From assembly GCA_964453785.1 (NCBI GenBank), contig CAYVRK010000014.1, forward strand, positions 8,868-72,867: a DNA stretch of 64,000 nt. The letters are read 5' to 3'. The stretch comes from an uncultured Bacteroides sp. Its GTDB lineage: Bacteria; Bacteroidota; Bacteroidia; Bacteroidales; GCA-2748055. The first letter of the stretch is position 1; each line of letters opens with the position of its first letter. The notes under the pieces are model-generated. The model was not told where the DNA came from and made no database searches. It was given only the letters and a program-made list of their open reading frames with translations. Below are positions 6,292 through 32,348 of this stretch, piece by piece. Made by a program: the position numbers and the translations under genes.

Positions 6292-7326
6292 ATGAAAAAG
6301 TTATTTATACCCATATTGGTATTTGCCCTGGTCAACCCGTTAATGAGCCAGGAACCTGAAATTCCCGTAGCAGTTGAAACTCCTGAAGCAATCGAAGCAC
6401 CCGAACCGATCGAAGCACCTGAAGCACCTGAAGCACCCGAAGCGATTGAAACTGAAGCTTCGATAGGTGATACTGTCAATGTGATTGGCCGGGTAGAGGT
6501 GATCGAAACCCCTGAGAAAACAAGGGTTACACTGGGGAAAAACGAAGTGATTATTGTGGAAGAAAACGGGGATACGGTGATTGTGGGGCTTGGTTCAAAA
6601 GGAATTAGTATTGTTGAAGACGGAGATGGTGTGGTGATTAATGTTCTGGACATGGAAAATAAGAAGTCCCCGCACTGTTCAAAATACAAGAATAGGTTTA
6701 ATCCGCACTGGGCCGGATTGCAGGTTGGCCTGAACAATTATGTAACTCCCGATTTCAGCCTTGTTTTACCTCCCGGAGAGGAGTTCATGGACCTCAATAC
6801 CGGGACATCCTGGTGCTGGAACATCAATGTTGCCGATTTCGGTGTTGGTTTTGGAACCAAATATGTGGGTCTGGCTTCAGGCCTGGGATTTGAATTCATT
6901 AACTATAACTTTGATGGTCAGAGTGGCATCATGAAAGACGATATTACAGGCAACATTGTTGAATATGTTCCAGATTATGCCGGATTCATTACCAAATCGA
7001 AGATGAATATTACATACATGACCGTTCCTCTCCTGCTGGAGTTTCAAATTCCCTTGGGAGGCAACCGGATCCATATTTCGGGAGGGGTTCTTGGCAGTCT
7101 TAAACTATGGTCCAACACCAAGATCAAGTACACCGAGGCCGGGGATAAATCCAAAGAGAAAAACAAAAGTGATTTCAACCTTTCTCCGATTCGGTGGGGT
7201 GTGACAGCACAGGTAGGATATGGTGGAGTGGGCGTTTTTGCCAATTACTACATGACCTCGCTGTTTAAAAAAGGAGAGGGGCCCGAGTTGTATCCTTTCT
7301 CCCTTGGACTTGCTTTTACCTTTTAA
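6292..7326 (+). CDS. Outer-membrane beta-barrel (porin-family) protein with an acidic Glu/Ala/Pro N-terminal linker
   Basis: Signal peptide MKKLFIPILVFALVNPLMS; amphipathic strands, YMTVPLLLEFQ motif, terminal Phe (GLAFTF). Confidence 0.75.
   Translation: MKKLFIPILVFALVNPLMSQEPEIPVAVETPEAIEAPEPIEAPEAPEAPEAIETEASIGDTVNVIGRVEVIETPEKTRVTLGKNEVIIVEENGDTVIVGLGSKGISIVEDGDGVVINVLDMENKKSPHCSKYKNRFNPHWAGLQVGLNNYVTPDFSLVLPPGEEFMDLNTGTSWCWNINVADFGVGFGTKYVGLASGLGFEFINYNFDGQSGIMKDDITGNIVEYVPDYAGFITKSKMNITYMTVPLLLEFQIPLGGNRIHISGGVLGSLKLWSNTKIKYTEAGDKSKEKNKSDFNLSPIRWGVTAQVGYGGVGVFANYYMTSLFKKGEGPELYPFSLGLAFTF
6376..6447 (+). repeat. Eight imperfect 9-bp in-frame tandem repeats (GAAGCACCY-like) encoding E-A-P/E-A-I triplets
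   Basis: GAAACTCCT GAAGCAATC GAAGCACCC GAACCGATC GAAGCACCT GAAGCACCT GAAGCACCC GAAGCGATT. Confidence 0.85.
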
Positions 7327-28621: not shown

Positions 28622-28959
28622 TGACCCTACAGGAAGCGCAGCTAAAGGTCGATACCTGGATCCGCCAATATGGAGTCAGGTATTTCAACGAACTGACCAA
28701 CATGGCCATCCTTACCGAAGAGGTAGGAGAAGTGGCCCGCATTATCGCCCGCACCTACGGTGAACAATCAGCCGGAAAGAATAAGCCGGGGAAAGGTGAT
28801 CTGGCCGATGAACTGGCTGATGTATTGTTCGTGATCATTTGTCTTGCAAACCAGACAGGGACAGACCTGGAAGAAGCCTTTCGGAAGAATCTGCAGAAAA
28901 AAACTTCCCGGGATTTTGACCGTCATCAACAAAATGATAAATTAAGGGGTTCAACCTGA
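28621..28959 (+). CDS. MazG-like nucleotide pyrophosphohydrolase
   Basis: LTEEVGEVARI..R.YGEQ, DELADVLFV..CLANQTG. Confidence 0.9.
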   Translation: MTLQEAQLKVDTWIRQYGVRYFNELTNMAILTEEVGEVARIIARTYGEQSAGKNKPGKGDLADELADVLFVIICLANQTGTDLEEAFRKNLQKKTSRDFDRHQQNDKLRGST

Positions 28960-28964
28960 CAATT

Positions 28965-29837
28965 ATGAAAATCCTTTCCGATTTCAACATGACCGTCGAT
29001 GCAGACGAAGTTTCACAGGTGCTGGATCGGGTAAAGGAACAGATTCCATCCGGTGACGACAAGGATTTGTTAAAGAAGATCTTCAGCCTGATCGATCTCA
29101 CCACCCTTAGCGAAAGGGACAATATTAAAAATGTCGCTGCCATGTGCGAAAAGGTGAATTTGCTTTCCGAGGCCTATCCATCCATGCCGGCTGTAGCAGC
29201 GGTATGTGTTTTCCCTGAATTGATCTCTGTGGTCAAAGAAACACTGGTAAATCCCCTTGTGAGTATCGCTTCGGTAGGTGGAGGTTTCCCTGCATCACAA
29301 ACCTTTACCAACATCAAAGTGATGGAAATTGAGCAGGCCATTGGAATGGGGGCTGAAGAAATTGATATGGTTCTCCCTGTGGGTAAATTCCTGATGGAGG
29401 AGTATGAATATGCAGAGTATGAGATTCAGGTGGTCAAGGAAAGAATCGGACCGGTTCACCTCAAGGTGATCCTTGAAACCGGTAGTCTGCAGGATTTTTC
29501 GCTGATCCGCAAGGCATCCTTTCTGGCCATCGGGGCAGGGGCAAATTTTATAAAAACTTCTACGGGAAAAATATCCCCGGGTGCTACACCAGAAGCCATG
29601 GTGGTTATGTGCCAGGCCATCAACGATTACTACAACAGGACTGGGAAAAAGATCGGTATCAAGCCAGCCGGCGGTATTTCCGATGTGGATACAGCATTGC
29701 TTTATTATGCGATCGTAAAATATGTCCTGGGTGAGAGCTGGCTCAATGCAGAAAGGTTCAGAATTGGAGCCAGCAGGCTTGCCAACGCATTATTGGCTAA
29801 AATTTTTGACCAAGGGCCTGATTTTGGTTATTTCTGA
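28965..29837 (+). CDS. deoC: Deoxyribose-phosphate aldolase
   Basis: IDLTTL, AAVCV, GAEEIDMV, LKVILETG, FIKTSTGK, GIKPAGGI, RIGAS. Confidence 0.95.
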   Translation: MKILSDFNMTVDADEVSQVLDRVKEQIPSGDDKDLLKKIFSLIDLTTLSERDNIKNVAAMCEKVNLLSEAYPSMPAVAAVCVFPELISVVKETLVNPLVSIASVGGGFPASQTFTNIKVMEIEQAIGMGAEEIDMVLPVGKFLMEEYEYAEYEIQVVKERIGPVHLKVILETGSLQDFSLIRKASFLAIGAGANFIKTSTGKISPGATPEAMVVMCQAINDYYNRTGKKIGIKPAGGISDVDTALLYYAIVKYVLGESWLNAERFRIGASRLANALLAKIFDQGPDFGYF

Positions 29838-29862
29838 CCATGCTTGGTATGTATAAAAGAAT

Positions 29863-29870
29863 TATATTTG
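29863..29870 (+). promoter_or_regulatory. Sigma-A -7 element with no downstream CDS on the same strand
   Basis: TATATTTG between convergent deoC and TPR genes. Confidence 0.55.
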
Positions 29871-29875
29871 TCTTG

Positions 29876-29958
29876 AGCGGTTCGATAGCATTCCATTCTC
29901 ATAGAGACGGGTTGAATTCCATGGCTTTTTTTCTTCAATATCGGACCGCTTTTTTTTA
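29876..29958 (+). ncRNA. Candidate small RNA, family not recognised
   Basis: Starts 5 nt after the -7 box; AGCGGTTCGATA (29876-29887) pairs with TATCGGACCGCT (29939-29950) (12 bp with one G-U); T-tract follows. Confidence 0.45.
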
Positions 29959-32184
29959 TTTCACCAAACGATAGTGTAAGTAGTCCAGCATCAGGGGAAT
30001 ATCTTTCTGACTGATACCGTTTTTGATCAGGATGGACTGGTCCTCTTCCATGGTTTTAAGAAAATCCTCCATCTCAAACTGAAGGTCTCTCAGGGATTGT
30101 ATGTATAATTCAATGGCATCCCTTTTATTTCCAAGGGCCCATTGGACATGGCCGTAATTGATATAGTCGTAATATCCCGGCTTCAACTGAAACACTTTCT
30201 GGAAGTACTTTTCCGATTTTTCCAGCTCCCCCATCGCAAAATAACACCAGGCAATAGGCCTGAGGATGTGCTGATTTCCCGGATTCATATATTCAATTTT
30301 AAAATATTGTTTTAGGGCTGTCTGGTATTCTCCCAGCTTCAGCCGGCAAAATCCAATCAGTGATTCCGTGGTGGTATCTCCCGGTTGAAGCAGAGCGACC
30401 TTTTCATACACTTCCAGGGCCGACTTGAAGTTGTTGTCCTTGCGGTAACAGATTCCCAGGTTCTTCAGGGTCCACAGATTCTGCTCACCGGCCAGGCTGA
30501 TCCGGGAATAATATCCGATGGCCTGCCGGTAATTGCCATCCTTCTGAAAACAGTACCCCGTCTTCTCAAGCAATTCACGATCATCAGGCCTGGATTCGAG
30601 CATCATTTTAAAAATATCCAGGGCCTCTTCAAAATGTTCCTTTTCAAAAAGGTACTCTGCGATGTTTCTGGTGATGGATTCATCTTCACTGATCTCACGG
30701 AAAAAGTAGGACTTGTACAGATCCAGCTTGCCGTCAAATACATCCTCAAATTCATTTTTAAAAGGAGATATTTTGAAGAAACGGTACAGGTCCTGTATAT
30801 ACTGGATAAACACCGTCCGTTTCGTGAAATCGCCCGACGTAAGCTTTTCATCGGCGATCATTTCCTGCAAGCCCTCCATCTCCATCAGGAAAGCGTTGGA
30901 AAGCATCTTTTTCTGATCCCCGGGCAAATACCTCAGGTTGAAGATAAAACTGTATTTGTCGCTGTTACACAGGAATGGCGTTTTCTTGAGACCATCCACA
31001 AAAATATCCGGATCAAAAGAGTCACTCCTGGAAGCGTAGATTTCGGACAGGTCCGGGTTTTCATTGTGAAAGGGAACCAGCCAGTTGGTAAGTTCGTTAA
31101 AGAACGGGAACTGTTTGAGATGCGCAAATGTGGTCATGTAGACATCAGCGCCTTCCATTTGAAGTTTCATAAACTCATCCACTTTCCTGTAAAGATCATC
31201 CGATTCACTGAACATGGATTCCCAGTCAGGATTCCTTCCCTCTTCAAGCAATTCATCACGAATATCATCCATCTTCAGCTTATCCTCCAGCTTGGGCCTG
31301 AGTTTTGCCATTTCAGGCATCAGGTCTTCCTGCAGCTTCCTGCCAATCTCCAGGGTATCACGTGTGCGGATCAGTTGCAGGGCAATTTTTTCAAAACTCT
31401 GTTCCAGCTCCAGTTCTCCACTGACCAATTGCAACCTTTGTATGACCTTGGGATAGAACTCAATTCTGTCATCATAACGGTAAAGTAGGATGACCAGTGC
31501 CACGATGGCCCTGGCCGAAACCTCCTGATCCTCCTCACCTGCAAAATCGATGAGCCTGTGTAGCTTCTCTTCGTCCCAGTACCTCAACCCTGACAACAGG
31601 ATCCCACTTACAAAAAGTGCTTTTTCGTACCATAGAAACTCGCGGCACGATAAAATGGCTGCAGAAAGGCTGTTTTCGGCCTCGTTATACCTGTTGCTCA
31701 GCCACAAATGCCTGAATATTTCCATGGAGAGGTTCCTTCGTCGCTCTTCATTGGCGCCGGGTGAAATCCTGTTCTCGTTGATGATCTCGTCCAGTTCAAG
31801 CTTGAACGAGAGGTCATCCATGGTCTCGATGATCTTTTTTCCGGTAAGTTGCTGCTTGCGATCCAGCTCCGCCTTTAATATATAGGTATGCCAGCCGGCG
31901 TTTTTTTCCATCAACAGGTCTTTGACCCTGTCAGCCAGTTCCAGGATGGAGGTAAGTAATTTCTGATATACACTGTCCCGTTGTGGATCCTGAACTCCTT
32001 CGAGCATATAATTAAGCATCTGCTCATAGGTGTGCTCCAGATGTTCCTGCTGAATAAAAAAGTCGCTGAAACCCGATTCACTGACCAGACCATTCAGTAC
32101 ATCCAGGGCATCCTTCACCTTCCGGGAAGAGACCAGCTGGCACAAACGTTGTGTGCGGGCTCTTATCTGCTGAACATTGATCAT
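29956..32184 (-). CDS. Tetratricopeptide-repeat protein
   Basis: C-terminal TPR units (IAEYLFEKEHFEEALDIF, GYCFQKDGNYRQAIGYY, IAWCYFAMGELEKS); FLCNSDKYS motif. Confidence 0.85.
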   Translation of the reverse strand: MINVQQIRARTQRLCQLVSSRKVKDALDVLNGLVSESGFSDFFIQQEHLEHTYEQMLNYMLEGVQDPQRDSVYQKLLTSILELADRVKDLLMEKNAGWHTYILKAELDRKQQLTGKKIIETMDDLSFKLELDEIINENRISPGANEERRRNLSMEIFRHLWLSNRYNEAENSLSAAILSCREFLWYEKALFVSGILLSGLRYWDEEKLHRLIDFAGEEDQEVSARAIVALVILLYRYDDRIEFYPKVIQRLQLVSGELELEQSFEKIALQLIRTRDTLEIGRKLQEDLMPEMAKLRPKLEDKLKMDDIRDELLEEGRNPDWESMFSESDDLYRKVDEFMKLQMEGADVYMTTFAHLKQFPFFNELTNWLVPFHNENPDLSEIYASRSDSFDPDIFVDGLKKTPFLCNSDKYSFIFNLRYLPGDQKKMLSNAFLMEMEGLQEMIADEKLTSGDFTKRTVFIQYIQDLYRFFKISPFKNEFEDVFDGKLDLYKSYFFREISEDESITRNIAEYLFEKEHFEEALDIFKMMLESRPDDRELLEKTGYCFQKDGNYRQAIGYYSRISLAGEQNLWTLKNLGICYRKDNNFKSALEVYEKVALLQPGDTTTESLIGFCRLKLGEYQTALKQYFKIEYMNPGNQHILRPIAWCYFAMGELEKSEKYFQKVFQLKPGYYDYINYGHVQWALGNKRDAIELYIQSLRDLQFEMEDFLKTMEEDQSILIKNGISQKDIPLMLDYLHYRLVK

Positions 32185-32348
32185 TCAAAATTATTTCCGT
32201 GATCCTGTCCAAATATCAAGCCATCCGAACGAAACAGACAGAATGGCAGGGATATCAATAGGTCAGCAAACAAGATAAAACAATCCTTTCCAATATTTGA
32301 TTAAATGGTGGCCACATTCTGTATAAAACGGAGAATCATTCCGGAAGA

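Follow-up and report, generated by a model that had tools for sequence, protein, structure and literature searches.

The gap between deoC and a convergent gene for a TPR protein, in the genome of an uncultured Bacteroides sp., contains a promoter-like box followed by a long-range stem, and the question raised by this locus is whether the two belong to an independently transcribed small RNA (sRNA) or merely form the end of the deoC operon. The original prediction proposed an sRNA of about 80 nt with paired ends. We have compared the element with its homologues in related genomes, in metagenomes and in viral contigs, with positions given throughout in the window, i.e. the whole stretch of 64,000 nt that was analysed. 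The comparison of sequences supports the sRNA reading, and we consider it likely that the gap encodes an independently transcribed + strand sRNA.

The element in the deoC-TPR gap

The sequence features proposed for the element were all recovered (Table 1). The -7 box is present base for base, the 12-bp stem around a 51-nt interior was confirmed, including one G.U pair, both small pairings in the interior lie where they had been placed, and the T-tract 3' of the stem is a run of eight T.

Table 1. Features of the element and its neighbouring genes, in window positions.
Feature	Position	Strand	Basis or comment
deoC, last gene of the co-oriented dtd-mazG-deoC run	28965-29837	+	TIGR00126, 159 bits
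-7 promoter box TATATTTG	29863-29870	+	Bacteroidota TAnnTTTG type; read in the sequence
Predicted transcription start	~29874-29878	+	placed a few nt 3' of the -7 box
P1 closing stem, 5' arm AGCGGTTCGATA	29876-29887	+	paired in all variants
Variable linker, GC in the window	29888-29889	+	alignments; 2-7 nt of differing sequence in relatives
48-nt nearly invariant core ATTCCATTCTCATAGAGACGGGTTGAATTCCATGGCTTTTTTTCTTCA	29890-29937	+	alignments of variants
AUUCCAU repeat, two copies in the core	29890-96 and 29916-22	+	
Small hairpin UCUC-AUA-GAGA in the core	29897-29907	+	predicted fold and placement of insertions
Predicted hairpin GGG-UUGAAU-UCC	29909-20	+	RNAfold prediction
Loop UUGAA (29912-16) pairing with UUCAA (29934-38)	29909-29938	+	possible H-type pseudoknot, predicted
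Part common to phage contigs, ACGGGTTGAATTCCATGGC...TTCAA	29909-29938	+	loci L258, L177 and L218
Internal U7 of the core	29926-32	+	
P1 3' arm TATCGGACCGCT	29939-29950	+	read in the sequence, fold, alignment
T8 tract, with P1 a putative intrinsic terminator	29950-29957	+	T-rich tract 3' of P1 in every homologue
Convergent 742-aa protein, C-terminal TPR repeats	29956-32184	-	N-terminal part matches no family

The closing stem (P1) consists of 11 Watson-Crick pairs and one U.G pair (T29882:G29944). The -7 box is located 25 nt after the end of deoC and five nt before P1. As had been predicted, the gap leads into no same-strand coding sequence: no + strand ORF was found in the window 3' of the element, and the next gene is convergent, its stop codon (29956-58, minus strand) being overlapped by the T8 tract. 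The U-tract trails P1 on the + strand only, and in a minus-strand reading P1 lacks a trailing U-run. Inspection of the sequence and a terminator scan found no second terminator between the deoC stop codon and P1, and since none is present there, P1 with its U8 run probably also ends the dtd-mazG-deoC transcript. A stem directly followed by a U-run is what an intrinsic terminator should have. The loop, on the other hand, is 51 nt long instead of 3-8 nt, and the consensus scan, which covers loops of 3-8 nt, does not call the site, in line with the earlier remark that such a loop is atypical for a plain terminator.

Two further motifs were observed in the neighbouring genes. The consensus scan called a terminator-like hairpin (GCCAACGCATTATTGGC, then TAAAATTTTT; 29781-29797) within the 3' end of the deoC coding sequence, which is probably a chance match. 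At the other end of the TPR gene a -7 box TAATTTTG (32186-32193, minus strand) ends one base before the annotated ATG (32184), which implies either a leaderless mRNA, a true start codon located later, or a chance match.

The element was compared with known RNA classes. When the window region was searched with Rfam 15 (4,227 models, including SRP, 6S, tmRNA and Y RNA, riboswitches, ribozymes and the Bacteroides/Bacteroidales motifs), the best scores were 13-16 bits against thresholds of 45-56 (E > 5), and the Rfam scan that the original prediction had called for gave no match at E <= 10. Longer forms of the element from relatives (L031, L033, L034) and the phage locus L258 described below also had no Rfam match. 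ARAGORN called no tRNA or tmRNA gene in the whole window; together with the search of the SRP models this agrees with the first impression that the element is neither a tRNA nor an SRP RNA. A small protein gene was rejected, as indels of 1, 2, 8 and ~31 nt shift every candidate frame, among them a 44-aa ORF (29840-29974) and a 17-aa ORF starting at the ATG of CCATGG. A riboswitch was rejected as well, with no same-strand ORF downstream and a convergent next gene in all six genera that carry the element. A keyword search of the literature found no description of the RNA, and a search by sequence strings retrieved only PCR primers with EcoRI/NcoI sites. The element thus appears to represent a real and previously undescribed small RNA family, with a gene of ~80 nt that has its own putative promoter box, closing stem and terminator.

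Within this one sequence the element is only weakly above chance. The folding energy obtained with RNAfold was -20.7 kcal/mol (z = -2.47), and 3 of 200 shuffles folded as well. The motif TANNTTTG occurs 32 times in the window, compared with 38.6 +/- 6 expected from shuffles, i.e. at chance frequency, and further inverted repeats of at least 11 bp within 100 nt are present elsewhere in the window. It is conservation among relatives that places the element far above chance.

Conservation, strand and promoter box

The element is single-copy in its own genome, and a repeat or mobile element was therefore ruled out. With a 601-nt query across the gap, the same deoC/TPR junction was found in 23 of 41 relatives; in these the flanking genes are 70-81% identical at the DNA level within the genus, and ~75 nt of the gap are almost unchanged. 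Between the genera that carry the RNA the TPR proteins are 58-64% identical, and the core meanwhile is nearly invariant. An exact 21-mer of the core is present in 58 contigs of uncultured Bacteroidales MAGs and a 19-mer in 92 metagenome contigs; class-wide, the 19-mer is absent from 400 other genomes even when one mismatch is allowed.

A covariance model (R1), built from 30 distinct copies, matched 57 of the 91 genomes of the family, distributed over 6 of its 14 genera. Full-length matches all scored above 94 bits, and partial matches sit at contig ends. The other eight genera gave no credible match (best score 27 bits), and among 401 genomes sampled across the order the model had four matches, all within the element's own family. 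The genomes of the six genera that had no R1 match were found either to lack the TPR locus too or to have a contig end ~70 nt past the TPR stop. Since every miss is accounted for in this way, the RNA is effectively universal in the six-genus clade.

The arrangement dtd-mazG-deoC, RNA and convergent TPR gene is identical in all six genera, and the RNA is therefore linked to the whole block and not to the TPR gene alone. TPR orthologues are found in all 14 genera; those next to the RNA have 58-97% identity and those of the genera without it 35-41%, and in the latter genera the flank downstream of the TPR orthologue is unrelated. Across 43 distinct variants the core exhibits only four single-substitution positions, 2-nt insertions at the small hairpin and a T7/T6 length variation. 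The linkers that flank it vary in both length and sequence. The TAnnTTTG box was found in 70 of 70 homologous loci checked and the stem in 43 of 43 distinct variants, the reverse of the missing conservation that the original prediction had named as speaking against it.

A number of MAG contigs (G006:C137 and C100; G485:C57 and C32; G484:C93; L032/L075; L062/L077) end inside or at the edge of the core, and where a locus is split the same 50-odd nt are carried on both halves. The invariant core evidently breaks metagenome assemblies where related species co-occur.

The variable pairs of P1 are 1:88 (A-U or G.U), 6:83 (U-A or U.G) and 7:82 (U.G, U-A or C-G). Because all of them pass through G.U, the alignments strongly favour the + strand; in a minus-strand reading, 31 of the 43 variants would have a central C.A mismatch in the stem. 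The P1 cells of the alignment are paired to 98.2%, as against 31-46% with the partners slid by 1-3 columns, and to judge from the alignment the closing stem is well supported. The proposal to collect deoC-TPR homologues and to analyse their covariation was followed: conserved homologues were found at the same junction, and over the 43 variants no pair exhibited double-sided changes relative to its commonest form, and the covariation score was that of shuffles. Other support for a structured RNA comes from pair 7:82, which is U-A or C-G via U.G, from the unrelated closing stem of the phage copy L258, and from hairpins in the leaders of longer forms.

For the interior, folding predicts the small hairpin, the GGG/UCC hairpin, a CCAU/AUGG helix and possibly a UUGAA/UUCAA pseudoknot helix, a fold that is only a prediction because the core columns do not vary. 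The insertions (ATAGA, ATATA) fall in or beside the loop of the small hairpin, and in one lineage, which has an additional AG, a U.G pair is converted to C-G by a U-to-C change (L025 compared with L233). Pair 44:68 is U-A in 41 cases and U.G in one, the A-to-G change opposite U in UUGAA/UUCR keeping the pairing.

The box keeps its place amid a surrounding spacer that is not conserved. All leaderless forms have it at a distance of 4-6 nt from P1; in the others it precedes a CGTTCT motif by 12-15 nt. In the short architecture, found in the window and a few other loci, the box is followed at this distance of 4-6 nt by P1. The medium architecture, typical of most of the genus, has the box, 12-15 nt, a conserved (A)CGTTCTT motif, ~20 nt and then P1, and the long architecture of the other genera has in addition an 8-11 bp hairpin and the conserved TGACCGATA before P1. 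The sequence of the long-form hairpin differs in nearly every locus, and 8-11 bp are always formed. Most relatives thus have a 5' leader of 30-75 nt, which is missing from the form in the window.

In a tree of the flanking DNA (85 loci), seven short forms and four leader-bearing forms fall into one clade with 94% support. Since the short forms share this clade with leader-bearing ones and a regain is implausible, the leader has been deleted on at least two occasions, with the box coming to lie 4-6 nt from P1 every time. On the sequence evidence the RNA of ~80 nt encoded in the window is a derived form without a leader, and the ancestral RNA would have had ~115-150 nt. The original prediction of an end-paired sRNA is in this way supported by the comparison, with the exception that 80 nt does not represent the ancestral length. 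A promoter followed by a transcribed leader should behave in this way: the box persists through the deletions, and the leader of the long form is structured. The motif TATATTTG, conserved in all 70 loci, agrees with the -7 element of a sigma-ABfr-type promoter, the start site being a prediction from it. Promoters of this type also have a -33 element, TTTG, which precedes the -7 element by ~19-21 nt. A loose (T)TTGG is found 15-17 nt upstream of the box in the window and in many relatives, a spacing shorter than that of the consensus.

These observations bear on two other explanations. If the element were a mere elaborate intrinsic terminator or a 3'-UTR element of the deoC operon, without transcription of its own, the TAnnTTTG box would be incidental, and it is true that the stem runs directly into T8, that it is the only terminator found after the deoC stop codon, and that the box motif alone occurs at chance frequency in the window. 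An incidental box, however, would have had to be kept in 70 of 70 loci amid a non-conserved spacer and to stay next to P1 after at least two independent leader deletions. Moreover, termination does not need 48 invariant loop nucleotides, and the stem is nearly fixed between genera, between which terminator stems normally vary freely. We consider this explanation very improbable.

The other is a regulated terminator or cis-antisense device that acts against the convergent TPR gene, in which read-through would produce RNA antisense to TPR, TPR transcripts would carry an antisense copy of ~80 nt, and the two would control each other. The stop codon of the TPR gene is overlapped by the U-tract, the TPR coding end lies within ~40 nt of P1 (usually within 15 nt) in the homologous loci read out, and a second, internal hairpin followed by U7 (29893-29932) could give an alternative early stop. 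As the minus-strand stem has no U-run, TPR transcripts should also cross the RNA gene. An effect of this kind would nevertheless need no invariant core of 48 nt, the phage copies are found in other contexts, and no alternative anti-terminator pairing was found; since dtd-mazG-deoC and TPR are inherited as a block, their linkage could be a matter of history alone. The overlapping 3' ends make a cis-antisense relation with TPR possible, but as an account of the element such a device is improbable.

Look-alikes in phage contigs

Look-alikes were searched for with the 19-mer in metagenomes and with a 17-mer in viral contigs, which besides the loci described here gave a few chance matches in coding regions. 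One look-alike is on a 27-kb viral contig (L258, IMGVR_UViG_3300037460_000298) that is ~60% complete, Bacteroidota-like and contains several TATATTTG boxes. Its region 6695-6790 includes ACGGGTTGAATTCCATGGCTTTTTTTCTTC, a 30-nt stretch in exact agreement with the 3' half of the core, enclosed in a 12-bp stem of its own and of unrelated sequence (CAGGGAATCCGC / GCGGATTCCCTG) that is followed by the U-rich AATTTTTAT. This copy folds with -30.2 kcal/mol (z = -3.1) and sits between a tail-like gene and small ORFs.

The core 19-mer was also found on the phage-like contigs L177 (the same sequence as L259), L185, L173 and L218. The regions concerned are 825-1250 of L177 and ~2650-3030 of L218. L177 has a two-piece tmRNA gene (Rfam tmRNA_permuted, 59.8 bits), and in L218 a tmRNA-like tag frame was read by eye, without a call by Rfam or ARAGORN. 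The tag frames of the L177 and L218 types are GKVVQLNPSTLSQVAA and GKVVQLPQLEAAA, ending in ...VAA and ...AAA. In both contig types the 19-mer ACGGGTTGAATTCCATGGC plus UUCAA makes up the loop of a G+C-rich hairpin 3' of the tag (~110 nt in L177). The stems of these hairpins differ between L177-type and L218-type contigs, and in L177 and L173 the hairpin lies just 5' of tRNA genes. The common denominator of the phage copies is thus the loop sequence and not the stem, which suggests that the loop itself may be the functional unit.

An ORF-free stretch of 540 nt (L235, ~810-1347 of Ga0224513_10017367) was observed in an unrelated context. It contains TTTCCATTCTCATTGAGACGGGTTGAATTCCATGGC, 36 nt that closely resemble the 5' and middle parts of the core, is without an Rfam match, and could belong to a larger non-coding RNA.

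Small RNA genes are frequent sites of phage integration, and the 30 nt in which the host element and L258 are identical could be an att core, in which case the element would act at the DNA level, e.g. as a phage attachment site or a protein-binding site. However, no tyrosine integrase (PF00589) was found on the 27-kb, ~60% complete contig, and the attP/attB idea is not supported. The phage copy is a complete stem-loop with matched 12-bp arms of its own and a U-tract, and the changes passing through G.U in the host stems point to selection on RNA. In addition, no interrupted copy was seen; shared k-mers account for the contig breaks in the core, and the two contig ends in G006 are the deoC side and the TPR side of the locus. 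We give a DNA-level role almost no weight.

A different reading is a folded RNA that binds a protein or a small ligand (a decoy, a scaffold, or an aptamer-like or catalytic RNA), with a compact core fold, perhaps a pseudoknot, under selection. This reading is kept mainly because the phage copies share the loop and not the stem: the module ACGGGUUGAAUUCCAUGGC(...UUCAA) recurs as a loop within quite different stems, both in L258 and in the hairpins after the phage tmRNA genes of L177 and L218. It is also consistent with 48 nearly invariant nucleotides across genera with ~60% identical proteins, with variation being found only in the linkers, the closing stem and a single hairpin loop, and with the finding that a 5' leader containing a candidate seed can be lost while the core stays. 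On the other hand, no partner candidate is at hand, the TPR neighbour being present also in the eight genera without the RNA (35-41% identity), covariation inside the core is absent, the known riboswitch and ribozyme models do not match, and the distribution is very narrow for an aptamer. A folded, binding RNA of this kind is possible, though somewhat unlikely. A more specific version, which we find doubtful, is that the core is a portable folded RNA module, possibly the H-type pseudoknot GGG-UUGAAU-UCC...UUCAA, that is bound by a conserved cellular factor or ligand, and that the phage copies mimic or compete with the host RNA. If true, a regulatory RNA of the host would have look-alikes encoded by phages, or the element would define a new class of small structured RNAs.

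Mode of action and relation to known RNAs

The explanation that we prefer is a + strand non-coding sRNA gene with its own promoter at the 3' end of an operon. It would be read from the Bacteroidota-type promoter with the -7 box at 29863-70, the transcript starting at or just before the first base of P1 (~29875) and ending at the P1 + U8 intrinsic terminator (~29953-57). The RNA would take the shape of a 12-bp stem holding the pyrimidine-rich core of 48 nt, to which the leader of the relatives would add a conserved CGUUCU motif. As a trans-acting regulator, it would expose the pyrimidine-rich UUGAAUUCCAUGGCUUUUUUUCUUCA for pairing with the translation initiation regions of mRNAs. This mode is favoured because it is established for Bacteroides sRNAs and because the core complement resembles a start region: the complement of the 3' half of the core is like a consensus start region of this genome, A-rich at -14 to -10 and followed by AUG, and that of UUGAAUUCCAUGGCUUUUUUUCUUCA is like an A-rich Bacteroidota start region with AUG GAA after it. 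Base-pairing with start regions is proposed by analogy and only tentatively as the main mode of action; the explanation as a whole we judge to be reasonably probable.

To what extent the genome offers targets was addressed with two kinds of search. RNAduplex, applied to the core and 3,314 predicted start regions, yielded 853 duplexes of -20 kcal/mol or lower, compared with 551 +/- 130 for shuffled cores and above the number for any of the 23 shuffles, an excess that may simply result from the U-run meeting A-rich start regions. In a scan for ungapped helices the best start region belonged to a STAS anti-sigma-antagonist gene (a helix of 15 bp that covers the AUG, score 34); this score was matched or beaten by 46 of 200 shuffles and is not significant, and the conservation of the pairing site, which is due to coding, is just as high in genera that lack the RNA. 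The STAS protein itself (115 aa; contig C19:66070-66417 of the same genome, minus strand; family judged from its sequence alone) is 84-97% identical across the whole family (loci L264-L288), and its start region, (T)TCAGC(T/A) ATG GAA TTC AA, is largely conserved. Within the window, 13 bp (three of them G.U; -20.5 kcal/mol) could be formed between the core and GGGGTTCAACCTG (28944-28956), which lies in the last mazG codons, 11-23 nt upstream of the deoC ATG. deoC was rejected as a target, as the match is located in the variable C-terminal coding end of mazG and is limited to the lineage of the window and a few further ones. A seed would need far fewer than 48 invariant nucleotides, and their number speaks for an RNA that is folded or bound by protein; the extreme invariance together with the phage copies fits a folded, factor-binding RNA at least as well as base-pairing.

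The GibS and FopS sRNAs of Bacteroides have canonical sigma-ABfr promoters, single-stranded seeds and a terminator, they pair with translation initiation regions, and their shared R1 seed and consensus structure have been deposited in Rfam (PMC11697453). The present RNA comes from the same phylum, its promoter is of a similar type as judged from the -7 box alone, and pairing with initiation regions is proposed here by analogy only. In contrast to GibS and FopS, it gave no sequence or Rfam match, with the qualification that the release searched may not include the GibS/FopS model. Its terminator stem encloses an invariant core of 48 nt in place of a small loop, the form in the window is without any 5' seed stretch, and the RNA is single-copy, compared with 14 copies of FopS. 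The hosts differ too, an uncultured environmental family here and gut Bacteroides there.

The position of the gene recalls the 'type I' 3'-UTR sRNAs, such as DapZ and MicL, which have their own promoter and share the terminator of the upstream mRNA. The present element likewise follows directly after the last gene of an operon, has its own promoter motif, and would have one terminator for both transcripts. Unlike in that type, the putative promoter is located 3' of the stop codon and not inside the coding sequence. An Hfq or ProQ chaperone is not expected in Bacteroidota.

Like an ordinary intrinsic (Rho-independent) terminator, the element has a G+C-containing stem followed by eight U, but it differs in its loop (51 nt and invariant in sequence, as compared with 3-8 nt) and in the dedicated promoter box upstream. 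AspocR of Listeria is an antisense RNA controlled by a B12 riboswitch, and the order of promoter, conserved structured RNA and terminator facing a convergent gene is similar here. The differences from AspocR are that none of the known aptamers matches, nothing suggests a ligand, and an anti-terminator was not found.

What is known of riboregulation in Bacteroidota comes almost entirely from a handful of gut species, and the RNA would represent a clade-wide sRNA of an uncultured family from sediments and digesters, with an unusually rigid core of 48 nt. The leaderless variants found in nature set the core apart from the 5' motif, and the promoter box that tracks the RNA through repeated deletions would provide a clean comparative promoter signature. 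On the practical side, the breaking of metagenome assemblies at the deoC/TPR locus by the invariant core is a warning to be kept in mind. Finally, the part of the core that is common to phage contigs hints at an interplay between phage and host at the RNA level.
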